Below are positions 42,002-59,816 of a DNA stretch of 64,000 nucleotides, piece by piece. Below the pieces are notes generated by a model. The model did no database searches. It saw only the letters and a list, made by a program, of their open reading frames with translations, and was not told where the DNA came from. The DNA comes from an uncultured Alphaproteobacteria bacterium. Its GTDB lineage: Bacteria; Pseudomonadota; Alphaproteobacteria; Methylaequorales; Methylaequoraceae. Numbering within the stretch: position 1 is the first letter of the stretch; the number at the start of each line of letters is the position of its first letter. Made by a program: the position numbers and the translations under genes. The stretch covers positions 13,542 through 77,541 of the forward strand of contig CACMJG010000005.1 in the NCBI GenBank assembly GCA_902613995.1, read 5' to 3'.

Positions 42002-42793
42002 TTACATTCCTGGCATTCTCATCAAACTGGCACCTACAGAATCTAATTCTTCAGCCATTTGAATAAACTTCACATGCATTTCAAATTTTCTTTGTTGGTC
42101 AATTGTATTCACCATTTCTTCAACCGCATTAACGTTACTTTTTTCTAAATAACCTACAACTATTTTTGCTTGTTGATTTGGTTGAATGTCAATTACCTCA
42201 GTTACACCATTTTCATTGGGTTCAGACTCTATCCTAATGTGACCGTCTAGAGTTTTTTTTAAATTATCATTTTCTCCTGGGGTAAATGTTGCAATTAATC
42301 CAACATTTTGAGGCAATGCATCAGGTTCAGCACCAATTGGTATTATAAAAATTTCTCCTTGGGGGGAAATTGTAATTTCCCTAAATGCTGGTAAAACCAA
42401 AGGTTGTAAACCTCCATCGAGCATTTTATTACCCGCTCCGTCTAAAAGCTCTCCATTTTCGCTTGTCTGAAAATCTCCGCGTCTTGATAATGACGGAGCC
42501 CCACCGTTTTTTGGTTGAATAACAAAATATCCATTGCCATCAATAGCAGCGTCTAAAGGATTTTTCGTAAAATCCATTGTACCTTGTTGAATTGAAAATC
42601 CTCCAACATTTCTTGATGAAACGATTCTTGGTTCAACTCCATTTTGTCTGTTTAGATAAATAGAACCAAAATCTGTAACAATATCCTGCCTAAAACCGGG
42701 CGTGCTTAGGTTGGAGAGATTATGTGATGTTGCAGTCTGATTCTCCATTAGCATTTTCAAACTGTTAAGTGCTGTTTGTGCCATTCTATCCAT
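42002..42793 (-). CDS. flgF: Flagellar basal-body rod protein FlgF
   Basis: MDR...HNLSNLSTPGFRQD, PLDAAIDGNGYF, SRRGDF, LEKSNVNAVEEM; follows flgE. Confidence 0.88.
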   Translation of the reverse strand: MDRMAQTALNSLKMLMENQTATSHNLSNLSTPGFRQDIVTDFGSIYLNRQNGVEPRIVSSRNVGGFSIQQGTMDFTKNPLDAAIDGNGYFVIQPKNGGAPSLSRRGDFQTSENGELLDGAGNKMLDGGLQPLVLPAFREITISPQGEIFIIPIGAEPDALPQNVGLIATFTPGENDNLKKTLDGHIRIESEPNENGVTEVIDIQPNQQAKIVVGYLEKSNVNAVEEMVNTIDQQRKFEMHVKFIQMAEELDSVGASLMRMPGM

Positions 42794-42817
42794 TTAAAAA
42801 GCTCCTAATAATCTTGG

Positions 42818-45800
42818 TTACATTCTGATGTTCACAATTGCTTGTGTTGTTGCAGCTGTGGTTTCAATTGATTTAGCATTTGCTTGGAAGTTTCTTTGTG
42901 CAGTAATTAAGTTCACAAGCTCTTCAGTAATATCAACGTTTGATCTTTCTAAAGAACCTGAAAGTACTGTTCCAAAACCTTCAGCACCAGCTTCACCAAC
43001 TGTTGCTGTTCCCGATACTGCAGTTTCAACATATGTTGAGTTACCAATTTGTTTTAGACCGTTCTGGTTGTTAAAGTTTGCTAAAACAATTTTACCAAGC
43101 GGATTGTTTTGACCATTCGTATAGTTTGCTCTCACTGTACCTGATGAATCGATTTCAAGACCATCTAATCTACCTGATGTAAAACCATCCTGATTAACTG
43201 TATTCACAGAGAAAGGCTGAGCGAGCTGAGTTGACTTTGTAAAGTCAATATCAAGATCAATACTAAATCCAGCTTCTTGCTTTTCATAATGAACGCCTTG
43301 TTTTGGACTGACAATTCTACCTGATTTATCGAAAGTAAGTTCTCCTTCATCAATGAAAAGAGGGAAGTATCCATCAACAACGTTCGCAGGAGGAGTAGTT
43401 ACTTTATTTCCATTCGCATCAACAAATAAAGCTAAACCTTCTGAGTTGGTTGCTTGTGTTAAATTAAAAATCTGTGGGACAGTTCCAACACCAAGATCAA
43501 CATTGTCGAGACCAAATTTACCTGCTCCTCTAACTTTGATTGTAGAGTCTCTTCCCGTAGTTCCGTTTGTAAAAGTGAAATTATTAGTGTCTGAATTATA
43601 CGATACTGTAATTCCACCACCAACTATCCCAGTTGTTCCTTCAATTTGGTTCATTCTTTCTTGAAGTGCTTCGGCTAGAGTTGTGCCGACATAAAAACCT
43701 TGAGGTATTTCAATAATACCTGGAACACCATTGACTGAGACGTTAAATATGTTTTCGTTATTCTGATTACTCAATCGAAATACTTGAGTTAAGTCTTCTG
43801 TTGCAGAGGCTCCAACGGCCACTGCAGGAAGTGCCGCCAATCCTTTTGCTTCTGTTTTTATTGCATTAGTTTTGGTTTTACCCACACCTAGCAGACCATT
43901 ATCTCCGCCAAAGAAATCTGTTGCATCAGTAACAGAACCATCCGTTGCTGAAAGAAGATATCGACCAACTGCAATATCCGATGCTGTTTGAGCGGTTGTA
44001 ACGCCAATTGCTCCATTTGCAGCAATTGTTTCTCCAGTTGTTCCACTGCTAAATTCAAATGCTTTTAATTCACTGTTATATCCTACTTTAATCCCAAAAC
44101 GTTTATCGTTTAGCTGAATTTCTGCTCCATCTGCAACGAAAGTTGCAGCAGAAAATTTCTCGCCACCTCTTATTAATGTTTCAGTTGTATCATCAGATGT
44201 TGGGATTCCAAGATTATTGGTAGAAGTTGCAGTAGAGGCTCCAAAAATTTTAAAACTGTTAAAGTTACTATTTGTACCTGTTCCTAAAATATTTCTATCA
44301 ATTTCGAATTGCAGTCTTTGGTTCAGAACATCATACGAAACTTCGATAGGAGGATCTTGAACATCAACCCAGTTAGTTGCCATATTTGAGGCTCCTGTAA
44401 TTGTTGAGTCAAGAGACCCTGCGTCACTTCCAAGTCCCAAAACCTGACTGGTATTTATAGATGCGGCAGAACCATTAATATTAAATTCAGCACTATGAAT
44501 TCCAAATATTGGATCACCAACTGAAACACTTCCATGTGCTCTGGCAACAGTTGAATCATCAACCATCTTGTTAGTATATGAATGTTTGTTAGCCGTTCCT
44601 ATTTCTCTCAAAACAACTTTTTTATTACTAAAGTTTACATCTGCACCTTTAAATACATTTTCTGCACCTTGAAAGAAAGCTTCAACACTCGTTGAGAGCT
44701 CGCTATATATCTTTCCATCATTATTCGTAGCAGCAATGTTAAAATCTGCATCTGGAAAATTCATACCAGACGTACTACATTCAACGAAGTATTTATTGCC
44801 TGAATCTTGAGCTGCTCTGATGACTGTAAATTCTCTTCCATTAAAAAAATTAGAATTTGTTGTATCAGTTGTAGAAGCATCAAACAAACCTAATGCTCTT
44901 ATTTTTTCATTTACAGTGAGACCTGGGTCGGATGCACCAAAATAAAATTTTACTGTATTTTCTGATTGATCGTACTCAACTATATTTCCATCATTTCCAG
45001 CTCCCATGGTATCAGCTTCGTCATAAACATGAAGTTGAGGGCTTTTGCCGAAATATGAATGGGTTAAAAACTTTTCTTCATCGGTAATTGCGGTAATTAC
45101 CCCAGAATCATTTGTAGTTGCATTGGCTCTTGTAATTTTAAAAGCCTGATTGTGCTCTAAAATACCTGTCATTGTTCCACCGGTATATTCTGCAAATAAG
45201 CTATTTTGAACACCTATTGATGCAGCATTACTAACAACGTCAGTTGATGCAGTTACTGCATAATTATTTAATGCGTCATTCAATCTAGCCTGTGTATGAG
45301 CTAAAAACTGATCTCTAGTAAAGTCGGGTGATGCACCTGTTAGTGTTATGCCCTCAAGAGTAGAAACATAGGAATCTGTGAGAAGGTCAACACTTATAGG
45401 TGTTGTTAAACCTGTCGATGTTCCATCAGCATTTAGCTTTAGTAAATCAATTGTGAGTGTATCATCAACGTTCTGTACGACCTGTATTTTTTTGTCATCT
45501 CCATATGCTGCATTTATTGCTCTTTGGATTTCTGTAGAGAGTTGTGCTGCGTTATAAGAACCTGGACGAATATCAATATTTACCGGTTGGTCACCATTAT
45601 CGACATTAACAGTCATAAAGTTGGTTCCCCAAAAAATACCTGAACCTGTATTACCACTTTCAACAGTTGATTTAAATTGAACTGGGTCAGTAACAATTGT
45701 AACAGTTTTGTCGCCTTCCTCACCAAAATCAAATCCACTAGATTCACCAGTAACCTTTGCTGGTGTTGAGTCAACTAAAGTCTGAAGATCATCTTGCTTA

Positions 45801-46654
45801 AACAAAGGAGAACCTTTTCCCTCCAAGAAATAGTTATCGTCAGGAACTTTAGTTGTTTGTTGACCAAATCGATCAATAAAAATTGGTTGTTTTGTATCAT
45901 TAACAGCTTTAACAAGATCTGGTTCAATTACAGTATCATTAATAACTAATCGCGTTTCAAACTTATTTGTAGGATCAGCTGCTGAAGCTGCCTGAGTTCT
46001 TATAAAAAAGATTGTAGCAATTGTTGGATTACCTAAATCATCAAAGATTGTTATTGAGGTTGAATTATTGTAAGTGGTTGGATCATTCGGGTTAAATACA
46101 TAACCACTTGAAAATTGCTCATTATCTGTAATTACATCACTTGTCGCGGAGACGTTAACACCCAAATCAATTTGGGTTGTTGCCTTTGGTGTTCCTGATG
46201 TTACTGGGAGCTGCAAAGGAACTGCACTTGTCAAATCTTTTGCCGTTACAGATCCATCGGCGTTAACTGGAAACGTAAGGAGGAACTGACCAGATGAGTC
46301 AGTCACGTACCTGTCATTGTTCACATTAAATGAACCGTTACGAGTATAAACTGTTTGCCCTGATGTAAGCGACGGCTTAAGGGAGAAGAAACCTTGACCA
46401 GAAATTGCTATATCAAGAACATTTAAAGAAGAGGTAATGTTACCCTGAGTAAACTGCTGCTTAACACTTTTAAGAATTGTACCAGAACCAATTGATGATG
46501 AAGCGTTTTGTAATGGTGAAGTTGCAAAAATATCACCAAATTCTGCTCTTGATCTTTTAAAACCAGTTGTATTAACGTTAGCAATGTTATTAGACGTTGC
46601 TGAAATGTCTGACTGTGCTCCGTTAAGTCCGGTAAGTGCTGTATAAAATGACAT
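42818..46654 (-). CDS. flgE: Flagellar hook protein FlgE, giant (1278 aa) with ~860-aa insertion
   Basis: SNNIANVNTTGFK, QFTQGNI, DIAISGQGFF, YTRNGSF; C-terminal QDG..G.L...I..SG...Y.NG and LERSNVDITEELVNLITAQRNFQANAK; flgB-C-D-E-F order. Confidence 0.93.
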   Translation of the reverse strand: MSFYTALTGLNGAQSDISATSNNIANVNTTGFKRSRAEFGDIFATSPLQNASSSIGSGTILKSVKQQFTQGNITSSLNVLDIAISGQGFFSLKPSLTSGQTVYTRNGSFNVNNDRYVTDSSGQFLLTFPVNADGSVTAKDLTSAVPLQLPVTSGTPKATTQIDLGVNVSATSDVITDNEQFSSGYVFNPNDPTTYNNSTSITIFDDLGNPTIATIFFIRTQAASAADPTNKFETRLVINDTVIEPDLVKAVNDTKQPIFIDRFGQQTTKVPDDNYFLEGKGSPLFKQDDLQTLVDSTPAKVTGESSGFDFGEEGDKTVTIVTDPVQFKSTVESGNTGSGIFWGTNFMTVNVDNGDQPVNIDIRPGSYNAAQLSTEIQRAINAAYGDDKKIQVVQNVDDTLTIDLLKLNADGTSTGLTTPISVDLLTDSYVSTLEGITLTGASPDFTRDQFLAHTQARLNDALNNYAVTASTDVVSNAASIGVQNSLFAEYTGGTMTGILEHNQAFKITRANATTNDSGVITAITDEEKFLTHSYFGKSPQLHVYDEADTMGAGNDGNIVEYDQSENTVKFYFGASDPGLTVNEKIRALGLFDASTTDTTNSNFFNGREFTVIRAAQDSGNKYFVECSTSGMNFPDADFNIAATNNDGKIYSELSTSVEAFFQGAENVFKGADVNFSNKKVVLREIGTANKHSYTNKMVDDSTVARAHGSVSVGDPIFGIHSAEFNINGSAASINTSQVLGLGSDAGSLDSTITGASNMATNWVDVQDPPIEVSYDVLNQRLQFEIDRNILGTGTNSNFNSFKIFGASTATSTNNLGIPTSDDTTETLIRGGEKFSAATFVADGAEIQLNDKRFGIKVGYNSELKAFEFSSGTTGETIAANGAIGVTTAQTASDIAVGRYLLSATDGSVTDATDFFGGDNGLLGVGKTKTNAIKTEAKGLAALPAVAVGASATEDLTQVFRLSNQNNENIFNVSVNGVPGIIEIPQGFYVGTTLAEALQERMNQIEGTTGIVGGGITVSYNSDTNNFTFTNGTTGRDSTIKVRGAGKFGLDNVDLGVGTVPQIFNLTQATNSEGLALFVDANGNKVTTPPANVVDGYFPLFIDEGELTFDKSGRIVSPKQGVHYEKQEAGFSIDLDIDFTKSTQLAQPFSVNTVNQDGFTSGRLDGLEIDSSGTVRANYTNGQNNPLGKIVLANFNNQNGLKQIGNSTYVETAVSGTATVGEAGAEGFGTVLSGSLERSNVDITEELVNLITAQRNFQANAKSIETTAATTQAIVNIRM

Positions 46655-46677: not shown

Positions 46678-47382
46678 TTATTTGTTTGATTTAAATTTTA
46701 TTGCTTCAGCTGCTGAAATTTCCCCGTAATCTTTAGTTTCTAAAATTACGTCCTCGCTATTTTTTGGAGCAGATGCTGCAATAACTTTGTTGTAAACTGC
46801 AGTATTTAATCCATCTGAGCCTTCAGCATTTCCTGAATACGCTTGAATTGTTAATTGAGTCTTATTCTTTTTTATTTCCTCTGGAATATCAGTCCAACTA
46901 AATCCCACAAGTCCTTTGTCATTTGAACCTAAACTCATTGAATGAATGATTTCACCATTAGAGTTTGCAAATGTAAGCCCAACGTCATTAGAGAACAATG
47001 GTAGATCTACAACACCGTGAATTTCTCCATTATCGTCGGGGCTAGCAACCTGTCCTGGTATTAACACTGAATGCCCAAGAAATTGTGCTGCCGTTGCAAC
47101 TCTGTTAGGTTCTAATTTTGAACCAAGGCTTGTTAAATTATTATTAATTTCCGTTATACCTGTTACTGTAGAAAATTGAGCCATTTGGGCAATAAAATCA
47201 CCGTTGTCCATTGGAGCAAATGGGTCTTGATTTTGCAATTGAGTAGTCATTAGCTTTAAGAAATCTTCTTGTCCAAGAGCAGTTTTTTTATTGCCCTTTG
47301 CAGCCTCTTCTTGAGTCTTTACACCAAGTTTGTTTAAGATATTATTTAACGATTGTTCCGATGTTTTTGATATATCTGGCAT
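46678..47382 (-). CDS. flgD: Flagellar hook capping protein FlgD
   Basis: LGQEDFLKLMTTQLQNQDPFAPMDN..FIAQMAQFS. Confidence 0.96.
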   Translation of the reverse strand: MPDISKTSEQSLNNILNKLGVKTQEEAAKGNKKTALGQEDFLKLMTTQLQNQDPFAPMDNGDFIAQMAQFSTVTGITEINNNLTSLGSKLEPNRVATAAQFLGHSVLIPGQVASPDDNGEIHGVVDLPLFSNDVGLTFANSNGEIIHSMSLGSNDKGLVGFSWTDIPEEIKKNKTQLTIQAYSGNAEGSDGLNTAVYNKVIAASAPKNSEDVILETKDYGEISAAEAIKFKSNK

Positions 47383-47394: not shown

Positions 47395-47808
47395 CTATTT
47401 ACCCATACTTGCAGTTTTAAGCATTAATGCTCTAACGGTTGATATTACCTCAACATTATTCTGATATTGTCTTGATGCCTCAAGCATGTCGACGTATTCC
47501 TCTTCGATGTTGACAGGTGCTCTGTAGATAAAACCATCTTGGTCTGCCATTGGATGACCAGGTTTAAATTCTTTTATCGGATCAATATCCATTTTTTGAA
47601 CAGTTACTGCATCAACAGTTGAAATTCCTCTTTTTCTTATAAGATCAAAATACTTAGTTTCAAAGATTGGCTTAACTGGTTTGTAAGCATCCTGAGGACT
47701 TGATGCGATATTATCAGCATTAGCTAAGTTACTTGCAGTAGCATTTAATCTTACTAATTGAGCTCCCATTGCTCTTTGTGCTATGTGGTAAATATTTTTA
47801 ATATCCAT
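47395..47808 (-). CDS. flgC: Flagellar basal-body rod protein FlgC
   Basis: RLNATASNLANAD, PGHPMAD.DG, EYVDMLEASRQYQNNVEV. Confidence 0.95.
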   Translation of the reverse strand: MDIKNIYHIAQRAMGAQLVRLNATASNLANADNIASSPQDAYKPVKPIFETKYFDLIRKRGISTVDAVTVQKMDIDPIKEFKPGHPMADQDGFIYRAPVNIEEEYVDMLEASRQYQNNVEVISTVRALMLKTASMGK

Positions 47809-48197
47809 TATTCACCCCTTATTGCCCCCATTAAACCTCTAACTTTAGAATTTATAAAATCCAAAGTTGTTTGATATCTTACTGCATTCTCAGCAAATTC
47901 CATTTGCTCAACAGCAAGTTCGACTGTATTTCCGTCAACAGATGGATTAACCGATTGTCTGAATTGAACTTTTCCTGGAAGGTTTTTTGAAGTAACGGCT
48001 ATATGACTTTTGTTAGATGTTTTTAAAGGACCAACATTTAGTGATCTAGCTAATTCTACTTCAAATTCGACATCTCGAGCTTTGTAGTTTGGAGTTGCTG
48101 CATTTGCAATGTTTGAAGCAAGAATTTCTTGTTTTTGATTTCTTACTCTTAATGCATTGCTCAATACATTTAATTGTTGTTTAATATTATCTACCAT
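47808..48197 (-). CDS. flgB: Flagellar basal-body rod protein FlgB
   Basis: QEILASNIANAATPNYKARD, DGNTVE...EQ..F..N...YQ. Confidence 0.95.
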   Translation of the reverse strand: MVDNIKQQLNVLSNALRVRNQKQEILASNIANAATPNYKARDVEFEVELARSLNVGPLKTSNKSHIAVTSKNLPGKVQFRQSVNPSVDGNTVELAVEQMEFAENAVRYQTTLDFINSKVRGLMGAIRGE

Positions 48198-48227
48198 TTA
48201 ATAATTTTTCTATTTTGGTTTGGAATT

Positions 48228-48243
48228 TGCAAATTAAATGCCA
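48228..48243 (-). promoter_or_regulatory. sigma-54 -24/-12 promoter for flgBCDEF
   Basis: TGGCATTTAATTTGCA (GG-N10-GC), ending 30 nt before the flgB ATG. Confidence 0.85.
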
Positions 48244-48262
48244 AAAGAAAGGTTTTAAAATT

Positions 48263-49255
48263 ATGGATGAAAAAAACGCTTTTAACACAGACTTAGACCC
48301 TGAGGTTATTAAAATAAGAGATAAAATAATTAGTAAAATCGGAGATAAACCACTTGAAGAGGTAAATTCTATAATTAAGAAATTATTAAATGAAAGTATG
48401 GACGAAGTTACCAGATTAGGAGCTTTGGCTGCGAGATTAAAGATTATAAGATCAAAAATCGATCTTTTGTATGAAAGAAAAGTTGAAATTAAGCCGGAAA
48501 AGCAAGTAAAGAAACCTAAGGAAGAAAAAAAAGAGGAAAAACCCAAAAAGTCAGAGGAAAAATGGATTAGGTTAAAAATGTTAGAAGCCGGGGAGGTGAA
48601 TGGTAAACAAATTGACAAAGGTGTAATACTTGATGTTAAAGAAGAGGATGGAAAAAAACTTGTAGAATCAAAAAAAGCTGAAGTTGTTGAGGAAGTTTCT
48701 GAAGGCGCTTCACCTATACAGAAGTCTGAAGATACTAAAAACGAAAAAGAAATAAAAAATGATAAAAAAGAAAGCTCAGAAACAAGCGAAAAAAGCGATT
48801 CACCATTAAAACAAGATCCTAAAACTGAGGCAGACTCAAATACGAATGAAGAAACTGAACAATTAAAAGATAATTCAGAAGAAGAGTCTAAAGCAAAAAA
48901 TCTTCTTGAAAAACATGAGGACGCAGTTCAAGAAGATGATAAAAATGATGAAGTTGATTTAAAGAATGAAGAAAAACCAGGTGATATTAATAGTGAAAAT
49001 ATAGAGCAAAAATCTGAAACAGATGATCGAGTTGATGCACCGTCTACAAATATAAATGATAAAGATTCAATTTCAGATGAAAATGAAAAAAAACAAAATG
49101 CTTCAAAAATAGATGAAAATAAAGAAAATACCGAAGAGCAGGACATTAAATCAAAATCCGAAAATGAAGAAAATGAGAGTAAAATCGAAGATAAGAAAGA
49201 TTCAACTAACGAAGTAAAAAATGAAGATAAGGATATTGAAAAAGAAATAAAATAG
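48263..49255 (+). CDS. Hypothetical protein: helical N-domain, small beta-domain, long acidic low-complexity tail
   Basis: Open frame in ORF track (48215..49255); ATG at 48263 (MDEKNAF) is the likelier start. Last ~190 aa are E/D/K/N/S-rich. Confidence 0.75.
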   Translation: MDEKNAFNTDLDPEVIKIRDKIISKIGDKPLEEVNSIIKKLLNESMDEVTRLGALAARLKIIRSKIDLLYERKVEIKPEKQVKKPKEEKKEEKPKKSEEKWIRLKMLEAGEVNGKQIDKGVILDVKEEDGKKLVESKKAEVVEEVSEGASPIQKSEDTKNEKEIKNDKKESSETSEKSDSPLKQDPKTEADSNTNEETEQLKDNSEEESKAKNLLEKHEDAVQEDDKNDEVDLKNEEKPGDINSENIEQKSETDDRVDAPSTNINDKDSISDENEKKQNASKIDENKENTEEQDIKSKSENEENESKIEDKKDSTNEVKNEDKDIEKEIK

Positions 49256-49310: not shown

Positions 49311-49673
49311 ATGCATAAAAAAATTATTAATAATACTGTTGGATTTGTGTTCGTAATCCTAATGTTTTTTCTAAGTTCCTGTAAAGATGTTTTTTTAAGG
49401 TTCAAGTACCAAACAATAGAATGTCAGGAAAATAGCTTTGATTTAAGAAAAATCTCAATCAAAAATGACAAAGTAGGATCTTTTGTAGATGTTCAATTTG
49501 GAAACTTTTATCACAAAATTGAAATTCTAAAAAATGATATGGATTGGATCCTTTTAGGAAATAAGAAATTAGACTTAGAGGTCGGGATTCGTAAGGATTC
49601 AGAAATAGTTGAAGTTAGACTGAAAAATATTATTAAAAATTTAAAGTGTAAAAAAGATGTTTTCAGAATGTAG
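49311..49673 (+). CDS. Hypothetical lipoprotein
   Basis: Hydrophobic leader ending in lipobox LSSC; two further Cys. Confidence 0.65.
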   Translation: MHKKIINNTVGFVFVILMFFLSSCKDVFLRFKYQTIECQENSFDLRKISIKNDKVGSFVDVQFGNFYHKIEILKNDMDWILLGNKKLDLEVGIRKDSEIVEVRLKNIIKNLKCKKDVFRM

Positions 49674-49684: not shown

Positions 49685-50107
49685 TTACTTTCCATGATAT
49701 TTTAAAATCGGCTCAATTTCATCCTCATTTAAACCTGTAGCAGTGGATATTTCCTCTAAACTTCGTCCTTGATTAGCCATTTGAATGGCAGTTGTAATAT
49801 TAGAGTCTCCTTTGTTAGAATCTGCAAGTCTTGAAATTTCAAGATCCAACTTTTCTAATGTGTATTTGTAATCATTAAGAATTTTTTTTTGTTCTGATAG
49901 ATTGATTTCTAACGATCTGAATTCTTCAATTAAGTCTTTAATGGCTCTTTCTAGCATGTTAGTTGTTTTTGAATTTTGATCATTTTTGAAATAATCAAAT
50001 AAAAAAGCCGAAACTACAAATATTAAAAGAAGTATCGTTAGAACTACAATAATTGTGGAAATATTGCCAGCTGGATCTTTTTCTATATAATCTCTAAGGA
50101 AATCCAT
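49685..50107 (-). CDS. DUF2802-like membrane-anchored coiled-coil protein
   Basis: One TM, a coiled coil, and C-terminal AIQMANQGRSLEEISTATGLNEDEIE resembling the DUF2802 helix-turn-helix-like tail. Confidence 0.55.
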   Translation of the reverse strand: MDFLRDYIEKDPAGNISTIIVVLTILLLIFVVSAFLFDYFKNDQNSKTTNMLERAIKDLIEEFRSLEINLSEQKKILNDYKYTLEKLDLEISRLADSNKGDSNITTAIQMANQGRSLEEISTATGLNEDEIEPILKYHGK

Positions 50108-50769: not shown

Positions 50770-50797
50770 TATACGACTAACTTTTATTATTGTTTAG
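50770..50797 (-). promoter_or_regulatory. Putative sigma-28 promoter for flgM
   Basis: CTAAAC-N14-GTCGTATA, overlapping the flgA stop; imperfect match to TAAA-N15-GCCGATAA. Confidence 0.45.
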
Positions 50798-51920: not shown

Positions 51921-53096
51921 CTAATTCATAAATTTAATAATTTTGCCTTTAATTTCGTCTTTATTATTCAAAGGGTTTAAAGGCTCAACAGTCGCAGAGT
52001 TTCTTCTTGAATCACTAACTGTTAGAACAATCCATTCACTCATTGTAATATCCTCAGAATCAGAAATAAAACCAACTGTACCTTTTTTTAAACCTTGATT
52101 CAAACCAATTGGAATTGTTAATTCATTATTAACAAGTTCAATTTCAGCCCTAAGTGGTTGACATTTTAAATTATCTAAAATTCTATATTGAATTTTAGAA
52201 ATACTTTTGTCTACGAATTCAATTAATTTGTCCTCAGATACTCTAAGAAATGCATCAATATGTTGATAGCCTGTTTTGTTTCCAATCCATAAAGAAAATT
52301 TGTAATTTAAAGAATCTAATACCTTGTAATACGGGCCTTCATAAATGTTTAAAGTAATATCAACCATTAGTTCCTTTGATACCGAAGTAAGTCTTCCTTT
52401 GGCGTAACTAAGTTTCATGATTGGATGCAAAGCAAATTCTCCTTCGTTTAAAGCATTTTGTTTACCCTCAACTAAATTATTATAGTCAAGTGCTATTGAT
52501 TTTTTAACGATTTTACTCGGATTAAAAGCTATTTTTGAAGAATCTTTTAAATTAATAAAACTAAGATTATTTAAATTGCCAAAGATTTCTGAGGAAATTT
52601 TCATTGGAAGTTTATCAGTCCACGCAGGAAGTTTGCTAGAAACCGAATAATGTGGTGCCAAGTATGATAAATTTACAAAATCTCTATTTGCACAATTAAG
52701 CATGCTATTTACGTTTACCAGATAAGCTTTGATTGTAACATTGTAATGTGTCTCATCTTGACTTTCTTCAATAATTACAAAATCCTTTATAGTTGAAGAT
52801 GGTCTTATCAAAACATTTTCGTTAAGGTTTGTGTTCATGTCCACACTTGAATATCCATCAACCTTTGCTCCTCCCTGAAGACTAGCTAGGTAAAGTGCAT
52901 CTTCTAATGCTCTTTTTTTAGCAAGACTAACATTATTTTCTATGATGACAGCTCTGCCTTTAGAAAAAACTTCTTTATAATTAATTTCATTGGCCAATAA
53001 ATAAGTGGTTCCTAAAAGAATTATAAAAAGTGATGTAAAAAAATAAGCTAATTGTTTTAGTAATACATCAAAAGAATTATATTGAATTTTTCTCAA
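51921..53096 (-). CDS. flgT: Flagellar basal-body protein FlgT (H/T-ring)
   Basis: KGRAVI......AKKRALEDAL..AS...GA.V..YS N-domain; C-terminal IPIG.NQG.K.G beta-domain; follows flgP. Confidence 0.8.
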   Translation of the reverse strand: MRKIQYNSFDVLLKQLAYFFTSLFIILLGTTYLLANEINYKEVFSKGRAVIIENNVSLAKKRALEDALYLASLQGGAKVDGYSSVDMNTNLNENVLIRPSSTIKDFVIIEESQDETHYNVTIKAYLVNVNSMLNCANRDFVNLSYLAPHYSVSSKLPAWTDKLPMKISSEIFGNLNNLSFINLKDSSKIAFNPSKIVKKSIALDYNNLVEGKQNALNEGEFALHPIMKLSYAKGRLTSVSKELMVDITLNIYEGPYYKVLDSLNYKFSLWIGNKTGYQHIDAFLRVSEDKLIEFVDKSISKIQYRILDNLKCQPLRAEIELVNNELTIPIGLNQGLKKGTVGFISDSEDITMSEWIVLTVSDSRRNSATVEPLNPLNNKDEIKGKIIKFMN

Positions 53097-53111: not shown

Positions 53112-53621
53112 TTACATTGATTGTGCTGATCTAAACAGATACGCAACCATATCTTGATCTATTTCTAAAACTGTTTCGTAGGTATCACTTCCAGTTGGAT
53201 TGATTCTAACTGTCCTCGCACCTCTGATAACGCCCGACACAATACCTCTAAACGTGTCATTTTGCACCATTAAATCTATCACAGTTGTATTACTGTCTAC
53301 TTTCAACCCATGAATTTGTTCTGCAAGTTCTCTCATCGCAGCCATTCTAGCAGATCTGATAGCCATTAATCTTTTTTGTTCAACATTTTGTCCGGGTTGA
53401 GTTGAAACTACAGCATATCCAGTTGCAGTAAGAGTTGGAAAATTAATAGACGCTCCGTCTAGTAATTCTCTTGTTTTATTAAGTTGACTAGTTGGCTTTG
53501 AATATTCTTCGTAATTCTCTTGTGTCTCGTTAGACAAATTTGAATTTGTAAATCCACTCATCATGTTCCCGTTACAGGATTGCAAAAAAATCGCTAAAAC
53601 AGGTAATAAAAATTTCTTCAT
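53112..53621 (-). CDS. flgP: Flagellar lipoprotein FlgP (LPP20 family)
   Basis: Lipobox LQSC; ATGYA......Q.RLMAIRSARMAAMRELAEQIHG..V...T......V..D.....V.GVIRGA. Confidence 0.85.
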   Translation of the reverse strand: MKKFLLPVLAIFLQSCNGNMMSGFTNSNLSNETQENYEEYSKPTSQLNKTRELLDGASINFPTLTATGYAVVSTQPGQNVEQKRLMAIRSARMAAMRELAEQIHGLKVDSNTTVIDLMVQNDTFRGIVSGVIRGARTVRINPTGSDTYETVLEIDQDMVAYLFRSAQSM

Positions 53622-53656: not shown

Positions 53657-53672
53657 TGCATAAATTATGCCA
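53657..53672 (-). promoter_or_regulatory. sigma-54 promoter for flgP-flgT-LysM-flgA-flgM
   Basis: TGGCATAATTTATGCA (GG-N10-GC), 35 nt before the flgP ATG, which has an AGGA RBS. Confidence 0.8.
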
Positions 53673-53710: not shown

Positions 53711-53726
53711 TGGCATGTCTCTTGCA
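53711..53726 (+). promoter_or_regulatory. sigma-54 promoter for flhA-flhF-flhG-fliA
   Basis: TGGCATGTCTCTTGCA, close to the TGGCACGNNNNTTGCW consensus. Confidence 0.87.
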
Positions 53727-53811: not shown

Positions 53812-55953
53812 ATGGATTTAGTGCTTAAAACATTCCAAAAAGAAAACTTTTTAAGTTTTGCCAGAACTTTTAGTATTCCAATTGGCATAATGATTCTAAT
53901 TGCAATGATGGTTATACCATTGCAACCATGGATGTTAGACATTTTATTTACTTCAAATCTATTGGTTTCTTTATTAGTTTTGATGGTTGCTTTACAAACT
54001 TTTAGACCACTTGACTTTTCAAGTTTTCCCACAGTTTTGCTTTTTGCAACGGTTTTAAGGTTAGGACTTAACGTTGCTTCAACTCGTGTAATTTTGAAAT
54101 CAGGTCACAACGGTACAGACTCAGCAGGCTCAATAATCGAAGCTTTTGGAGAGTTTGTGATGTCTGGAAGTTATGCAGTTGGGTTATTTGTTTTTTCTAT
54201 TTTAGTAATTATCAATTTGATTGTTATAACAAAAGGAGCTGGACGAGTTTCTGAGGTGGCAGCTAGATTTACACTTGATGCAATGCCTGGAAAACAAATG
54301 GCAATTGATGCTGATTTAAATGCGGGAATTATTTCAAGTGAGGAGGCAAAGGGTCGAAGAAATGAAATAGCAAAAGAAGGAGAATTTTATGGTGCGATGG
54401 ATGGGGCCGCAAAGTTTGTAAAAGGAGATGCCATAGCGGGAATTTTAATTTTAGTCATAAATATAATTGGTGGACTTATAATTGGTTCGATTATGCACGA
54501 TCTAACAATTAGTGAGTCGGCAGAAACATACATACTTCTGACAGTAGGAGATGGTCTTGTTGCTCAAATTCCTTCATTGCTGCTCGCGATGGCCACAGCT
54601 ACTATTGTAACTAGAATATCGTCTGATAATAATGATTTAGCAGGACAAATATCGAAACAAATGGGCCTGTCGAGAGCATGGGTTCCAGTTTCTGCAGTTC
54701 TGCTTCTTTTTGGTTTGGTTCCAGGTATGCCAAATACATTATTTTTAACTGGTGCATTTTTGTCAGGACTTATTGCTTGGTTTACTTCCAAACGTGATGG
54801 ATTAAATCAAACCGAAGAACAAACGGAATCAAAAAGTGAAGAGGAAAATATAGGAAATATAGAAATAGACGAAGTTTCTGACAATGCCTCAATATCTCTT
54901 GATCTAGGATATGGTTTAATATCATTGGTTGATTCTACAGATAAAAAATCAGCTGGCCCATTAATCTCGAAAATTACTAGTATAAGAAAACAAGTTTCAA
55001 AGGATTTGGGTTTTATAATTCCAAATGTCAGAGTTAAAGATGATTTATCTTTAGACGCAAATTCATATAAAATACGGATTGGACATACAATTGTTGCTGA
55101 AGACAAAATTTATGTTGACAGAAAACTCGCTATGCCTGGGGATGAAACTCAAATAAAGATTCAGGGAATACAGGTTAAAGATCCATCTTTTGGATTAGAT
55201 GCTGTTTGGATCGAACAGCATTTAGTTGCTAAAGCTGAGTCTAATCATTACATGGTCATTGAACCAGAGGCAGTAGTAGGCACTCATCTTAATCAAATTT
55301 TATTAAAGTATGCAGGTGAATTAATAAGTCAGGATGATGTTCAGTCTTTACTTGATAATTTATCAAAAACTCACCCACAGCTTGTTCAATCAGTCATTCC
55401 AAAACTTGTTCCATTACATTACCTCACAATTATTTTAAGAAACTTATTAGTTGAGAGAGTCCCGATTAATGACTTAAAAAAAATTCTTGAAGCTTTATCG
55501 AACCTTTCTGAAAAAAAACTCAGTCCTGACGAATTATCTGAGGCAGTTAGACCAGCAATTTCTTCACTTTTAATACAGAAGATATCAAATGTAAATGAAC
55601 CACTTGACGTGATAACATTCAACCCTGAATTTGAACAGATGCTAATATCTATGACCAAAAAAAGTGGTTCCGATGGTCTTTTGATTGACCCCTCATTAGC
55701 AAAACAAATGATAAAGTCCATTATTGATGTGGGAGAAAAATCCTCATTAACTGGAAACTCTCTAGTTGTAGTGACTTCTCCAATTATCAGAAAAGACTTA
55801 TCAATTTTACTACGACAACATGTAGATGACATTGTTGTGCTTTCTTTCACAGAGTTACCTGAAAATAAAAGAGTAAAAGTTATCGCAACAATAGGTGAAC
55901 AAATAACAACAGAAAATAAAAAGGAGCAAAAAAATGAAAACTCAACTATTTAA
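53812..55953 (+). CDS. flhA: Flagellar export gate protein FlhA
   Basis: FSSFPTVLLFAT..RL.LNVASTR, RVSEVAARFTLDAMPGKQMAIDADLNAG, FYGAMDGAAKFVKGDA. Confidence 0.97.
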   Translation: MDLVLKTFQKENFLSFARTFSIPIGIMILIAMMVIPLQPWMLDILFTSNLLVSLLVLMVALQTFRPLDFSSFPTVLLFATVLRLGLNVASTRVILKSGHNGTDSAGSIIEAFGEFVMSGSYAVGLFVFSILVIINLIVITKGAGRVSEVAARFTLDAMPGKQMAIDADLNAGIISSEEAKGRRNEIAKEGEFYGAMDGAAKFVKGDAIAGILILVINIIGGLIIGSIMHDLTISESAETYILLTVGDGLVAQIPSLLLAMATATIVTRISSDNNDLAGQISKQMGLSRAWVPVSAVLLLFGLVPGMPNTLFLTGAFLSGLIAWFTSKRDGLNQTEEQTESKSEEENIGNIEIDEVSDNASISLDLGYGLISLVDSTDKKSAGPLISKITSIRKQVSKDLGFIIPNVRVKDDLSLDANSYKIRIGHTIVAEDKIYVDRKLAMPGDETQIKIQGIQVKDPSFGLDAVWIEQHLVAKAESNHYMVIEPEAVVGTHLNQILLKYAGELISQDDVQSLLDNLSKTHPQLVQSVIPKLVPLHYLTIILRNLLVERVPINDLKKILEALSNLSEKKLSPDELSEAVRPAISSLLIQKISNVNEPLDVITFNPEFEQMLISMTKKSGSDGLLIDPSLAKQMIKSIIDVGEKSSLTGNSLVVVTSPIIRKDLSILLRQHVDDIVVLSFTELPENKRVKVIATIGEQITTENKKEQKNENSTI

Positions 55954-57079
55954 AGCTAGAGACATGAAAACAGCCATGAATTTAGTAAATGACGAATACG
56001 GAGATAAAGCTATTATCCTATCAACAAAAAGAAATAATGGTGTTGTTGAAGTTGAAGCGTCCGACAATGACAAAGTAATTGAAACTCATAAAAAGAAAGT
56101 AGAAGAAAAGAAAAATTTTTCGAAAGTTTTCAATAAAGAAATAAACATACCTTCCAAAGAAAGAGAATCAAATACAGACAATGTTTCTTATATTGGAAAA
56201 AAAGAGTCCAATCAAAACACACATGGCAAAATCGACACGCAAATGCTTGAAAAAATTCAGATTCAACTAGAATCACTAAAAGATGAAATGAACAAGATGA
56301 TTATAACAGACCAATCAGGCATTTCTGATAAATTGTCGTACTATACGCCAATTAAATTAAGGCAAGAAAAGTTTTTACCTGAAATAATAAATAAATTAAG
56401 TTATTCTTTTATAGGAAAAAATCTGGAGGAGGGAAGAGTGTCTTTTTTCAGAGAATTATCTAAAAAATTGGCATCAGATGATTTCCCAAGATTATTGAAT
56501 TCAAAAAATATCTTTATTTTTGGAAATTCTGGGTCAGGAAAATCTACTCTATCTGCAAAAATTGCTTCTTTTTTATCAGATAAGAAAAATACTAAAAATA
56601 TTTATTTTTATGATGTAACAAATTCTAGTACTGGAAACTCAGACACATTAAGATCTTACAGTAGAGTTCTCGGCTTTCCAGTAAAAGATTATAATTTTTT
56701 CAATTTTAATAAACAAAATGAGGATGATGCTGTAAACATTTTTGATATTTCTGGAGACATTAATTTTGGTGTGCAAAAAATAAAAGAGATAAAAAATTCA
56801 TTTCCGTCTTTTAATTTTTGTTCTATATTAACATTACCAAGTGGATCAAATTCTGAAATGATTGATGGATTAAGCGATAAAGTCTCTCATATAAGACCAA
56901 TGATAGCTGTCACAAAACTTGACGAGTGTTGGGTAGGAGCCGAAGAATTTTCTTCTTTAGCCAAAAATAATTCTAGGATTGGAATTGTTACGGGCACAAA
57001 AGTTTTAATTGATTCAATTATTGAAGCTAATGAAAACTCACTGACAAAATATATGAAAGAGAATTTTAAAGGTGTCTGA
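55934..57079 (+). CDS. flhF: Flagellar SRP-type GTPase FlhF (degenerate)
   Basis: N-terminal F.A.DM..AM..V..E.G..A.ILST; GNSGSGKST P-loop; DISG; TKLDE; between flhA and flhG. Confidence 0.8.
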   Translation: MKTQLFKARDMKTAMNLVNDEYGDKAIILSTKRNNGVVEVEASDNDKVIETHKKKVEEKKNFSKVFNKEINIPSKERESNTDNVSYIGKKESNQNTHGKIDTQMLEKIQIQLESLKDEMNKMIITDQSGISDKLSYYTPIKLRQEKFLPEIINKLSYSFIGKNLEEGRVSFFRELSKKLASDDFPRLLNSKNIFIFGNSGSGKSTLSAKIASFLSDKKNTKNIYFYDVTNSSTGNSDTLRSYSRVLGFPVKDYNFFNFNKQNEDDAVNIFDISGDINFGVQKIKEIKNSFPSFNFCSILTLPSGSNSEMIDGLSDKVSHIRPMIAVTKLDECWVGAEEFSSLAKNNSRIGIVTGTKVLIDSIIEANENSLTKYMKENFKGV

Positions 57080-57869
57080 TTCGATTGCAATAACCAGCGG
57101 AAAAGGCGGAGTTGGTAAAACGACTTTTGCTGTGAACTTATCGATTGCACAAAGAAAGTTTACGGATCAAGTTTTTCTACTCGACACTGATATGGGGATG
57201 GCTAATTCTCACGTTCTTCTAGGGGTAAATCCGGAATACAGTATTTCGGATGTAATTTCAGGTGAAAAACAAATATCAGAAATTATTGAAAACTACAAGA
57301 AAGGGATTGATTTAATCTCTGGGGGAACTGCTTCTAATAATCTGCTTAATCTCGAAAATGTGAAGAGGTATTCTATTCTAAATGAAATAGATAATCACCT
57401 CAAAACCTTTAAAAATGTTAAACTAATGGTTGATATTGCAGCTGGTGCTGAAGATAATGCTCTTGTTTTCTCATTAGCTTGTGATCGTATTTTAATTGTA
57501 ATTGTTGGAGAACCAACTAGCTTTATAGACTCGTATGCTTTGATAAAAGCATTATATTCTAAATCATCCTTTAAAAATTACTGTGTTGCAGTTAACCAAG
57601 TGGATAACGAAAGTCATGGAAAAGATTTATTCAAAAAATTCCAATCAATTACAGCTAAATTTTTAGACGTAAATTTGCATTATGTTGGGTGTGTAAAAAG
57701 TTCTCAGAAAATTAGGAAGTCAATTGTTGATAGAAAACCTATAAGTATTAGTGAACCAAAGTCTGAAATTTCTCAGTCTTTTTTGAAAATAACCAAGAAT
57801 ATTAATGAAACGCCATCAAACGAATGGGGGGGATTAACTTTTCTTTCAAAAGTTCAGAAAAGAGCGTAA
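57072..57869 (+). CDS. flhG: MinD-like ATPase FlhG/FleN
   Basis: ITSGKGGVGKT, DTDMGMAN, DIAAG, EPTSFIDSY.LIK; GTG start. Confidence 0.9.
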   Translation: MSDSIAITSGKGGVGKTTFAVNLSIAQRKFTDQVFLLDTDMGMANSHVLLGVNPEYSISDVISGEKQISEIIENYKKGIDLISGGTASNNLLNLENVKRYSILNEIDNHLKTFKNVKLMVDIAAGAEDNALVFSLACDRILIVIVGEPTSFIDSYALIKALYSKSSFKNYCVAVNQVDNESHGKDLFKKFQSITAKFLDVNLHYVGCVKSSQKIRKSIVDRKPISISEPKSEISQSFLKITKNINETPSNEWGGLTFLSKVQKRA

Positions 57870-57879
57870 ATTATAAATT

Positions 57880-58584
57880 ATGAACAATTATTATTTGGAT
57901 AAATCACAAACCTCAATACATGATTTAATTCAAGATAATCTTGATCTTGTCAGGAAAATTGCCTGGCAATTGCATGGAAGAGTTCAGAATATTGTTGAAT
58001 TGGAGGACCTAATTCAACAGGGAATGGAGGGTTTAGTTCATGCAGCACAAAAGTATTCACCAAAAGAGGGTGTAAATTTTTCTCAGTATGCTCAGCTAAG
58101 AATTAGAGGGTCTATAATTGATTTTCTCAGAAAGAATTCTAATTTATGCAGAACAACAATAAAAAAAAAACAAGAATTTGAAAGATCCAAGCTTGATCTT
58201 GAGAAAAAATTAAATAGACAAGCCACAGAAAAAGAATTGATTGATTTTCTTGGCATCTCAGATGATGAGTTTAATTATTGGAAGAAAGCTTTTGAAGCGA
58301 ATGTAGTTCAAAGTTTGGACACAGCCTATAATGAATATTCAATTCTTTTTGCCAGTAAGGATGATAATCCAGAATTAAGTTTACAAAACAAAGAATTAAA
58401 AAATCAAATTAAAGAGGCATTAGGTGTTTTGAATCAAAGAGAGGCATTGGTGGCACAATTGTACTATGTAGAGGAATTGAATATTTACGAAATTGCTGAG
58501 GTTTTAGAAATTAGTACCGGAAGAATTTCTCAAATTAAAAAATCATTGATTGGAAAATTAAGAAATGAAATCAATTCAGATTGA
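57880..58584 (+). CDS. fliA: Flagellar sigma factor sigma-28
   Basis: LVRKIAW...EDLIQ.G..GL...A..Y, YA..RIRGSIID.LR, region 4 EIAEVLEIS.GRISQI. Confidence 0.93.
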   Translation: MNNYYLDKSQTSIHDLIQDNLDLVRKIAWQLHGRVQNIVELEDLIQQGMEGLVHAAQKYSPKEGVNFSQYAQLRIRGSIIDFLRKNSNLCRTTIKKKQEFERSKLDLEKKLNRQATEKELIDFLGISDDEFNYWKKAFEANVVQSLDTAYNEYSILFASKDDNPELSLQNKELKNQIKEALGVLNQREALVAQLYYVEELNIYEIAEVLEISTGRISQIKKSLIGKLRNEINSD

Positions 58585-58981
58585 AAAAAATAAATGGGAA
58601 AAAATTAATAAAATTGTTTTGAGGGTTGATAATGTAGACCTAATTTATAATCAAGATTTAACTATTAATTTTGTTTGCGGTTTTGAAAACATATCTAGAG
58701 GGAGATGTTTACTTTTAGTTAAAGAAAAGAATAAAAAACAATTTGATAATTTATTTATTTATAATGATAAAGCTTTAATGGAAGTAAATATATTTTTAGA
58801 TGAAAAAAAATTAGATAATCTTTTATACCACATTTCATTAAAAAGAAACTCATCCAAAAAAATTAAAGTAACCATTTCTATTTCAGATAATCTGATGATT
58901 AATCAAAAAGGAGATCTGTATGTTGATAGTGAAACCAAGATAAAAATAAATGAAATTAGTTGGAATATTCCATTATTATAG
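58565..58981 (+). CDS. Hypothetical protein
   Basis: 138-aa ORF overlapping the fliA 3' end; no recognisable motif. Confidence 0.6.
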   Translation: MKSIQIEKNKWEKINKIVLRVDNVDLIYNQDLTINFVCGFENISRGRCLLLVKEKNKKQFDNLFIYNDKALMEVNIFLDEKKLDNLLYHISLKRNSSKKIKVTISISDNLMINQKGDLYVDSETKIKINEISWNIPLL

Positions 58982-58983
58982 TA

Positions 58984-59790
58984 CTAGCGTGCAGATAATT
59001 TTTTTGTTACATCAATTTCTGATTGAAGCATCTTACCACATCCATTAAATGCTTGTTGAGTTCTAAGCATCAAAATTATTTCATCAGTAATATCAGTATT
59101 TGATTTTTCAAGAAATCCTGCTTGTATTTTTCCAATTGTTCTTTCCTTTGGAGCACCAAATGTAGGAAGACCACTTTCAGGTGTTTCATTAAATCTTGCA
59201 TTTCCAATATTTTTTAAACCATGCTCATTTACAAAATCAGCTAATTCAATTTGACCTACTTTTACTATTGTGTCTAAACCGTAAGTTGCACTGATCAAAC
59301 CTTCGCTGTCAACAGATATTTCAGTTAATAATTCAGGATTACCCTCCTCAGTTGGTGCACCAAGAAATGGTATATTAATAGGTGTTTGACCAATTCCAAG
59401 AAGTGGTAAACCGTCAGTATTAACAAGATTACCCTCTCTATCCAATTGGAAAGAACCATCTCTAGTAAAAGCTCGTTCTTGCGGTGCAGTATTCAAACCT
59501 CTTCCTAAAGGTTGTCCTAAAACAAAGAATCCTTCACCCATTATTGCTAAATCTAAACTTCCATTGGTTGCTTGCAATGATCCTTGAGAAAAGCTTTGTC
59601 TTGGTTTTATTGTTTTAACACCCATTCCTGTTGCCTTTTCAGTGGAATTATTGTGTTGAGAATGATAAAGGTCTTCAAACTGTGCCTCACTTTTTTTAAA
59701 ACCATTTGTTCCAGCATTTGCTATATTGTTTGAAATTACAGCTAAGTCTCTATTTGCGGCATCTAGTCCAGTTCGAATTATTGAAAACAT
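58984..59790 (-). CDS. Flagellar hook/rod family protein (FlgG-sized, with FlgE-like motifs)
   Basis: VISNNIANAGTNGFKK, DLAIMGEGFF, FTRDGSF, LEKSNTDI..E. Lacks the FlgG-specific RQPG..SS...PSGLQIG segment. Confidence 0.85.
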   Translation of the reverse strand: MFSIIRTGLDAANRDLAVISNNIANAGTNGFKKSEAQFEDLYHSQHNNSTEKATGMGVKTIKPRQSFSQGSLQATNGSLDLAIMGEGFFVLGQPLGRGLNTAPQERAFTRDGSFQLDREGNLVNTDGLPLLGIGQTPINIPFLGAPTEEGNPELLTEISVDSEGLISATYGLDTIVKVGQIELADFVNEHGLKNIGNARFNETPESGLPTFGAPKERTIGKIQAGFLEKSNTDITDEIILMLRTQQAFNGCGKMLQSEIDVTKKLSAR

Positions 59791-59800
59791 GACTTATCAC

Positions 59801-59816
59801 AGCAAATAGTATGCCA
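59801..59816 (-). promoter_or_regulatory. sigma-54 promoter for the FlgE/G-family gene
   Basis: TGGCATACTATTTGCT (GG-N10-GC); predicted +1 falls on the ATG at 59790. Confidence 0.82.

Follow-up and report, generated by a model that had tools for sequence, protein, structure and literature searches.

The 64,000-nt stretch of contig CACMJG010000005.1 analyzed here (the window) comes from an uncultured alphaproteobacterium of the order TMED127 ("Methylaequorales") and carries at 42002-59816 a locus of 20 flagellar genes (Pfam and NCBIfam), co-oriented or divergent, roughly a third of a flagellar gene set that is complete and dispersed over the chromosome. These genes are read, with a probability of roughly 85%, as part of a flagellum of the Fla1 type of Rhodobacter (Cereibacter) sphaeroides, the "fla3" of the Rhodobacterales, which is native across TMED127 and, to judge from its genes, probably works as such. 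The fla3 type encodes the "Fla1" of R. sphaeroides (PMC5030684; PMC12363192). The best plasmid match to the FlhA of the window (tblastn, 54.8% identity) lies on pOA238_118 of Octadecabacter arcticus 238 (NC_020909.1, 118 kb), and 43 of the 65 TMED127 flagellar-locus proteins queried with phmmer match this plasmid in the same local order; the fla3 superoperon is reported to be the only flagellar cluster of Octadecabacter (PMC5030684). An initial annotation of the window had listed FliA/FlgM, FlhF/FlhG, FlgT, FlgP, and a DUF2802-like gene as a set foreign to the common alphaproteobacterial flagellum and had pointed to Fla1 as a relative; the gene content is real, the set is indeed unlike the common type, and the link to Fla1 is correct in gene content, order, and regulators. 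The system is ordinary in kind; what is noteworthy is the host, an abundant ocean lineage of streamlined, obligate methylotrophs in which it is a core trait. Its presence in TMED127 and the complete lack of chemotaxis genes are newly described here.

The flagellar gene set of the host is complete. Escherichia coli K-12 flagellar proteins (annotated RefSeq regions) were used as phmmer queries against all open reading frames of the assembly, with Pfam applied to the unknowns, and the remaining fli, flg, and mot genes and rpoN, for which the initial annotation had pointed to the rest of the genome, were found on three other contigs (C7, C3, and C1), whereas a FleQ-like activator was found in a congener (G014) and is not assembled in this metagenome-assembled genome (MAG). 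Contig C7 carries fliE-F-G-H-I-(J)-K-L-M-N-(O)-P-Q-R-flhB, two conserved hypothetical genes, motB-motA, and the sole rpoN; contig C3 carries flgG-H-I-J-K-L and one flagellin gene; and the end of contig C1 carries flagellin genes (one of them at C1:249430-250989), fliD, three fliS paralogues, and a gene for a CLC channel. The contig breaks fall inside flagellin paralogues and at fliE. The export set includes FlhB, FliP, FliQ, FliR, and FliI (phmmer, 1e-13 to 1e-122) and FliH (Pfam), and it is accompanied by FliF/G/M/N, FlgB/C/F/G, FlgH/I, FlgD/E, FlgK/L, FliD, at least three flagellins, and MotA/B. MotA/MotB constitute a single stator with a plug and an OmpA-like domain, FlgK is giant (1696 amino acids [aa]; C3:2758-7848), and FlgJ, of 100 aa, has the rod-binding part only. 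Hook and junction proteins of such size, which the Octadecabacter plasmid also encodes, characterise this sub-clade; a relative (f146) has a normal FlgE of ~430 aa. The product of orf241 (C7:12975-13700) is bitopic and of the size of MotF, of which it may be the counterpart. The three FliS-like chaperone paralogues (C1:243572-243973, 246073-246459, and 247273-247671) adjoin the flagellin genes, and the flagellins encoded beside them, at least three in number, are very unequal in length (250, 254, and 519 aa). The fliS, flagellin, and fliD genes also have among them one for a CBS-domain CLC chloride channel (C1:244327-246033), a homologue of which (4e-71) adjoins fliD on the Octadecabacter fla3 plasmid, so that the association is conserved. 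The 346-aa acidic protein, the 120-aa lipoprotein-like protein, and the LysM protein of the window, together with the products of orf241 and orf266 and the CLC protein, are conserved members of the cluster.

FlhA occurs in 37 of the 42 TMED127 genomes, among them each of the nine with a completeness of 90% or more, and none of the 14 genera lacks it; identities are 75-99%, with one match per genome, and no second, "typical" flagellar system or remnant of one was seen in TMED127 genomes. The possibility that faulty binning or assembly brought the region in from a gammaproteobacterium, which the initial annotation had named as a way in which it could fail, draws on the division of the MAG into 22 contigs and on a slightly raised GC content at 42-48 kb (0.36-0.38), which is due to codon positions 1 and 2 of the genes for Gly/Ala/Thr-rich axial proteins. 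The flanks in the 157-kb contig, however, are ordinary genes with identical GC content at third codon positions (GC3), the flagellar genes recur in the 37 genomes just mentioned, single-cell genomes included, and RpoB sets the genome among the Alphaproteobacteria; a chimera is excluded by the order-wide conservation and native composition and is left with next to no credibility. The GC3 of the 20 flagellar genes is 0.213 and that of 30 neighboring genes is 0.215 (p = 0.91), which agrees with the earlier impression that the wobble positions are as AT-rich as those of the host, so that any acquisition must be old and fully ameliorated. The module also proved intact as described, with all the named genes in place and conserved across the order.

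The host assembly (GCA_902613995.1) is a MAG of 22 contigs and 1.36 Mb, with 30% GC and 89% completeness, and a search of the assembly did not find a 16S gene. The FlhA of the single-cell genome (SAG) AG-901-J22 is 83% identical to that of the window and identical to that of a genome of the same family as the window (G034), and since AG-901-J22 is classified as o__TMED127; f__TMED127; g__MED-G10 (Table S3, Glass et al. 2025, PMC12542740), the host is assigned to TMED127/"Methylaequorales." This assignment is further supported by a XoxF-type pyrroloquinoline quinone-dependent methanol dehydrogenase (C4:10381-12210) with the CCD disulfide and DYDG lanthanide motifs. The order comprises a single family with 42 species genomes in 14 genera, all uncultured, with assemblies of 0.8-2.0 Mb and a genome size of ~1.5 Mb, in agreement with PMC12542740. 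In the RpoB tree the genome falls among the Alphaproteobacteria, and the named Gamma- and Betaproteobacteria form a clade with 100% support on a long branch; the backbone is weakly supported, and RpoB alone leaves the deep alphaproteobacterial relationships unsettled. A closed alphaproteobacterial genome of another family (G065; 1,410,127 bp), which is without FlhA, is sister to TMED127 in one RpoB tree, probably as a compositional artefact. In the surface waters of oligotrophic oceans, members of TMED127 are reported to surpass all other methanol oxidisers in transcriptional activity; they account for up to ~4% of metagenomes per genus and have proteorhodopsin (PMC12542740). No flagellar, motility, or chemotaxis terms occur in the accessible part of the text and supplements of that study, and no report of flagella in TMED127 was found in the consulted literature that names the group, which has so far been described in metabolic terms.

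Four sigma-54-type promoters head the four units of the window locus, three of them exact matches to TGGCAY-N5-TTGCW and one with a single mismatch, so that the use of sigma-54 promoters proposed in the initial annotation is upheld. The exact matches precede flgBCDEF (TGGCATTTAATTTGCA; 48228..48243, minus strand), flhA-flhF-flhG-fliA-orf138 (53711..53726, plus strand), and the extra FlgE/G-like gene (59801..59816, minus strand), and the match with one mismatch (53657..53672, minus strand) precedes flgP-flgT-LysM-flgA-flgM-orf91-DUF2802. In the whole 1.36-Mb assembly the pattern TGG[CT]A[CT]N5TTGC[AT] has only 15 matches, seven of which lie directly upstream of flgB, flhA, the FlgE/G-like gene, flgG, fliK, motA, and the main flagellin gene. 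Two additional sigma-54 enhancer-binding proteins (EBPs) are found in all nine of the other high-quality TMED127 genomes. In G014 (L186:7678-10091), the first is a 394-aa AAA+ protein without a helix-turn-helix (HTH) domain, whose gene immediately precedes fliE on the same strand, and the second, encoded divergently from the first, is a 354-aa protein with AAA+ and Fis-type HTH (HTH_8) domains and no receiver domain. This is the arrangement of fleT-fliEFGHIJ and fleQ in Fla1, where FleQ activates fleT-fliEFGHIJ and FleQ/FleT then activate the class III genes, including fliA, flgM, and motAB (PMC7277832), and it therefore argues for regulation of the Fla1 type. The EBPs assembled in this MAG are NtrC and NtrX only (C1:34.9-39.8 kb), which were considered as FleQ/FleR and rejected, as their dusB-ntrBC-ntrYX-trkA context (C1:34904-40891) marks them as nitrogen regulators. 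One further match to the promoter motif precedes glnB (C1:142351, plus strand), and together with the single rpoN and the ntr block it implies that one sigma-54 serves both the nitrogen and the flagellar regulons.

From these elements a working of the Fla1 type can be proposed, in which sigma-54, encoded by the single rpoN adjoining the fli/mot locus, and the FleQ-like EBP would switch on the operon of the fleT-like EBP and fliEFGHI(J). FleQ/FleT would then drive the sigma-54 promoters of flhA, flgB, flgP, flgG, fliK, motA, the FlgE/G-like gene, and the main flagellin gene, and this stage would yield the export gate, the rod, the giant hook, the P and L rings, FliA, and FlgM. Once the hook is complete, FlgM would be exported and FliA released to act on such late genes as there are. 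An H-ring or basal disc made of FlgT and FlgP would surround the LP rings, the position and number of the flagella would be under the control of FlhF/FlhG, and the one MotA/MotB stator would drive rotation, presumably aided by FliL and the MotF-like bitopic protein, with a hook and a hook-filament junction that are predicted to be unusually large.

Steering of such a flagellum by classical chemotaxis is not to be expected, since the 42 TMED127 genomes lack CheA, CheW, and methyl-accepting chemotaxis proteins: neither the CheW domain, which is also part of CheA, nor the MCPsignal domain was found in any of them (0/42 for each), with control genomes positive. Likewise, phmmer searches of this assembly with E. 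coli K-12 queries gave no match for CheA, CheW, CheR, CheZ, or Tar/MCP. Swimming may therefore be undirected, may be modulated in speed via the proton-motive force, or may be under the control of another regulator or input. The N-terminus of FliM (C7:7727-8704) keeps a CheY-P-binding-like motif (KLSTEEVNALM), which raises the question of what replaces CheY.

Genome-streamlining theory treats oligotrophs of this kind as non-motile. The maintenance of ~50 flagellar genes (~4% of coding capacity) in every genus of these ~1.5-Mb methylotrophs, which have no chemotaxis pathway, is at odds with that view, and it raises the questions of whether the cells swim and what undirected or kinesis-type motility buys a methanol specialist. 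It could be held that the genes are intact without making a swimming organelle, as a relic used for secretion or surface sensing, and the usual non-motility of streamlined oligotrophs, the want of chemotaxis genes throughout the order, and the precedent of Octadecabacter speak for this. The number of genes kept in all genera despite so small a genome speaks against it, as do the 75-99% identity of FlhA across genera and the retention of a stator, flagellins, a cap, three FliS proteins, and hook-filament junction proteins, which would be useless for secretion alone, and the relic explanation is judged quite unlikely. Several observations nevertheless weigh against a working Fla1-type flagellum. 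The Octadecabacter type strains whose sole cluster is fla3 are described as non-motile (PMC5030684), so that an intact cluster is no proof of swimming, and the TMED127 transcript table of PMC12542740, in its accessible part, has no flagellar entries. The FleQ/FleT-like regulators were read from the congener, as their genes fall where this MAG has an assembly gap, between contigs C7 and C5. A scan for the sigma-28 consensus (TAAA-N15-GCCGATAA-like) gave no match upstream of flagellar genes, and as the main flagellin promoter is of the sigma-54 type, the late tier may differ from that of Fla1. The scores of DUF2802, FlhF, and FliO are below the curated cut-offs, FliJ and FlgN are assigned from position only, and the comparison with R. 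sphaeroides Fla1 (RSP_0032-RSP_0083) was made by description and via Octadecabacter.

Within the window, the locus lies among ordinary genes of the 157-kb contig, bounded on one side by a gene for an EamA transporter (40904-41782) and on the other by tRNA-Val (59861-59936), after which a TRAP transporter is encoded. On the minus strand, the flgBCDEF operon encodes the rod proteins FlgB (47808..48197; Pfam; E. coli FlgB, 2e-23) and FlgC (47395..47808; Pfam; E. coli FlgC, 3e-23), the hook cap FlgD (46678..47382; Pfam FlgD, 85 bits), the giant hook protein FlgE of 1278 aa (42818..46654; Pfam Flg_bb_rod, D1, FlgE_D2, and Flg_bbr_C), to which the 1410-aa FlgE of pOA238_118 is orthologous (E = 0), and finally the proximal rod protein FlgF (42002..42793; Pfam Flg_bbr_C and LlgE_F_G_D1; E. 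coli FlgF by phmmer, 6e-24). Divergent from flgB on the plus strand lies a gene for an acidic, K/E-rich protein of 346 aa (48215..49255); it has no Pfam or NCBIfam match, its N-terminal part is conserved, and homologues stand in the same position in TMED127, its relatives, and Octadecabacter. A 120-aa protein encoded on the same strand (49311..49673) has an N-terminal hydrophobic segment followed by Cys and is predicted to be secreted or a lipoprotein; it is shared by TMED127 and relatives.

The second minus-strand unit begins with flgP, which encodes an LPP20-family outer-membrane lipoprotein (53112..53621; Pfam LPP20, 33 bits, above the cut-off; Octadecabacter LPP20, 2e-40), and flgT, which encodes the H-ring protein (51921..53096; Pfam FlgT_N, 40 bits, cut-off 28.8; Octadecabacter FlgT_N orthologue, 1e-32). 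Between flgT and flgA lies a gene for a secreted LysM peptidoglycan-binding protein of 141 aa (51487..51912; Pfam LysM) that weakly resembles the FimV/HubP core; TMED127 and five related families have it, with matches of 1e-27 to 1e-48 in the relatives. The unit continues with flgA for the P-ring chaperone (50787..51497; Pfam ChapFlgA, 76 bits), flgM for the anti-sigma-28 factor (50434..50745; Pfam FlgM, 34 bits), a gene for a 91-aa coiled-coil protein (50144..50419) that has no Pfam or NCBIfam family match and is, from its position after flgM, a candidate for the FlgK/L chaperone FlgN, and a conserved gene for a DUF2802-like protein with one transmembrane helix (49685..50107; Pfam DUF2802, 30 bits, cut-off 33.5).

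On the plus strand, flhA encodes the export gate (53812..55953; Pfam FHIPEP, 770 bits; PDB FlhA, 568 bits) and is followed by flhF, which encodes a divergent GTPase of the signal recognition particle type (55934..57079; TIGR03499, 76 bits, cut-off 174) that keeps the P-loop and TKLD and has DISG in place of DTAG. Next come flhG/fleN for a MinD-type ATPase (57072..57869; Pfam CbiA/ParA; Pseudomonas-locus orthologue, 2e-44) and fliA for sigma-28 (57880..58584; Pfam Sigma70_r2 and r4; E. coli FliA, 3e-32). The product of orf138, which follows fliA (58565..58981), has the motif LVNIARG and is conserved in all 11 of the Fla1/fla3-like loci inspected; its AlphaFold2 model is a confident, beta-rich domain (pLDDT 90, pTM 0.82) with no significant fold match in the PDB (best E 0.05, TM-score at most 0.38, vaguely OB-like), and a PilZ-type brake, suspected at one stage, was dropped on that account. 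The last gene (58984..59790, minus strand) encodes, under its own promoter, an extra FlgE/FlgG-family paralogue of 268 aa without a D2 domain (TIGR03506, 228 bits; pOA238_118 orthologue, 6e-45). It scores below the FlgE and FlgG equivalog cut-offs and is not the true FlgG, which is encoded on contig C3.

Outside the order, this type of flagellum is rare. In a class-wide survey, FlhA was present in 254 of 400 evenly drawn genomes, almost all at 36-41% identity to the FlhA of the window, and only a handful of genomes from six other families reached 46-58%; the type was thus found in ~3% of the sampled flagellated Alphaproteobacteria outside TMED127, and its occurrence is patchy, with five of 14 genera in the order of one such family. 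Phylogenies were built from FlhA (72 rows in a quick tree and 41 rows in a careful tree under LG+C20 PMSF, with the 80 most similar named FlhAs sampled) and from FliI, encoded on another contig (33 rows, careful); the flagellar trees are unrooted. In both the FlhA and the FliI trees, the typical Alphaproteobacteria form one clade on a branch of ~2 substitutions per site, and TMED127 forms a clade with Octadecabacter, a "Rhodobiaceae" MAG, and six other alphaproteobacterial families (support 100/100). Gamma- and betaproteobacterial groups are separate from this clade and TMED127 is nested in neither, with the joining node unresolved. When the Alphaproteobacteria were held monophyletic, the approximately unbiased (AU) test did not reject the held tree, whose log-likelihood was 20 higher than that of the free tree for FlhA with 72 rows (p-AU 0.84), 1.6 lower for FlhA with 41 rows (p-AU 0.45), and 0.2 higher for FliI with 33 rows (p-AU 0.55). 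From the tests and trees it follows that the flagellar genes are compatible with the position of the host at the level of the class, a congruence that the initial annotation had treated as contrary to its proposal.

An import of the system, or of the whole fla3/Fla1 lineage, from a gammaproteobacterium would fit the higher identity of the TMED127 FlhA to those of Marinomonas, Pseudomonas, and Paraglaciecola (44-47%) than to ~240 other alphaproteobacterial FlhAs (36-41%), the possession of FlgT, FlgP, FlhF/G, FliA/FlgM, and DUF2802 in common with Vibrio- and Pseudomonas-type systems, and a review that derives Fla1 from an ancient gammaproteobacterium (PMC7277832), and neither the FlhA nor the FliI tree has a backbone resolved well enough to speak against a very deep gamma- or betaproteobacterial donor. 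The long branch of the typical Alphaproteobacteria can, however, by itself explain the pattern of identities, the TMED127 clade consists of Alphaproteobacteria only and lies outside every sampled gamma- and betaproteobacterial group, a tree that holds all alphaproteobacterial sequences together matches or surpasses the free tree, and the origin of fla3 has been traced to other alphaproteobacterial orders (PMC12363192). On balance, such an import is judged unlikely. The order flhA-flhF-flhG-fliA is also found in Firmicutes (Bacillus) and Campylobacterota (Campylobacter), which makes it an ancestral rather than a gammaproteobacterium-derived character and weighs further against the import. The gammaproteobacterial provenance proposed in the initial annotation is therefore not supported, and of its placement of the module with Vibrio/Pseudomonas-like systems and Fla1, the link to Fla1 stands and the membership of a gammaproteobacterial flagellar clade does not; the textbook origin of Fla1/fla3 in the Gammaproteobacteria is likewise weakened.

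Transfer among Alphaproteobacteria clearly happens, given that a plasmid carries the type in one host and that its distribution in another order is patchy, and TMED127 may have received the cluster by horizontal gene transfer from another alphaproteobacterium, for example through a plasmid like pOA238_118, before its radiation, with the genes scattered thereafter. Spread by horizontal operon transfer has been described for the Rhodobacterales (PMC12363192; PMC5030684), and within the clade the FlhA relationships conflict with those of RpoB, as f121 groups with f201/f136 for FlhA and with f35/f146 for RpoB; the rarity of the type in the class and its presence in only five of 14 genera elsewhere point the same way. 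Against this stand the universality of the system in the 14 genera of TMED127, its native composition, its division over at least three loci beside housekeeping genes, and the single FlhA match per genome with no sign of a second, typical system; moreover, an ancient transfer would look the same as vertical descent in a deep-branching order, and the RpoB backbone is weak. A transfer of this kind is a serious possibility, if one held at somewhat short of even odds. It is also possible, although doubtful, that fla3/Fla1, with its sigma-54/FleQ, FlhF/G, FliA/FlgM, and H-ring, is the slowly evolving ancestral system of the Alphaproteobacteria, vertically inherited in deep-branching orders like TMED127, with the CtrA type as a fast-evolving derivative, with the Rhodobacterales having later regained the ancestral type by transfer from lineages of this sort, and with swimming in TMED127 independent of chemotaxis. 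If that were true, chemotaxis-independent swimming would be an unrecognised foraging mode of a streamlined ocean oligotroph.

Among known systems, the canonical alphaproteobacterial flagellum (Caulobacter, Rhizobiales, and fla1 of the Rhodobacterales, with CtrA/FlbD/FlbT/FlaF) shares the core apparatus with that of TMED127, and a sister relationship between the two is compatible with the AU tests, but FlhA and FliI are only 36-41% and 36-40% identical, respectively, across the branch of ~2 substitutions per site. The canonical flagellum is without FlhF/G, FliA/FlgM, FlgT, and FlgP. The polar flagella of Vibrio and Pseudomonas, which are under FlrA/FleQ and sigma-54 and in Vibrio have an H-ring of FlgT/FlgO/FlgP, are nearer in these respects, with the same four-tier sigma-54/sigma-28 logic, the gene order flhA-flhF-flhG-fliA, FlgT, FlgP, a DUF2802 gene, and FlhA proteins 44-47% identical. 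In contrast to them, the TMED127 system is without an FlrB/FlrC-type two-component tier, a receiver-type N-terminal domain of FleQ, and che genes after fliA, and neither MotX/MotY (an OmpA-/Sel1-type gene) nor FlgO was seen in the TMED127 loci examined.

The cluster on pOA238_118, the closest named relative, corresponds almost one to one in content and local order. Both have an LPP20 gene followed by flgT-flgA-flgM and a pair of hypothetical genes, facing flhA; fliK-L-M-N-P-Q-R-flhB, behind which come two further hypothetical genes and rpoN; motAB; an EBP gene heading fliEFGHI with a second EBP gene divergent from it; flhG-fliA followed by a hypothetical gene (133 aa in Octadecabacter); a gene divergent from flgB; the extra FlgE/G-like gene (267 aa on the plasmid); and a CLC channel gene beside fliD. 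Giant FlgE and FlgK proteins (1410 and 1436 aa in Octadecabacter) and a FlgJ with the rod-binding part only are likewise shared. The cluster of Octadecabacter differs in being plasmid-borne and interrupted by insertion sequences, in having flhG-fliA apart from flhA, in a marginal match for the LysM gene (E 0.009), and in a DUF2802-like protein not detected by sequence. Most of the "unknown accessory genes" for which the initial annotation had suggested an undescribed system thus have counterparts in a described cluster of the fla3/Fla1 type.

The Fla1 flagellum of R. sphaeroides has FlgT and FlgP rings, MotF, and a FlgK of 1363 aa and is without MotX/MotY, and alphaproteobacterial flagella of vertical descent have neither FlgP nor FlgT (PMC7277832). 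It shares with the TMED127 system a sigma-54 hierarchy with two EBPs, one without an HTH heading fliEFGHI and the other with an HTH; FliA/FlgM; FlgT and FlgP (LPP20); a very large FlgK and a rod-binding-only FlgJ; a single MotAB stator without MotX/MotY; FliL; a MotF-like bitopic protein; and an rpoN in the cluster. The two differ in that TMED127 has no flagellum but this one, with its genes scattered along the chromosome, and no che genes, against several che sets in R. sphaeroides, that the FlgE of TMED127 is also giant (1278 aa) and its main flagellin promoter is of the sigma-54 type, and that TMED127 has a recognisable flhF-flhG after flhA and a LysM protein gene between flgT and flgA. With TMED127 and its relatives included, the host range of Fla1/fla3 is widened beyond the Rhodobacterales to at least seven alphaproteobacterial families.

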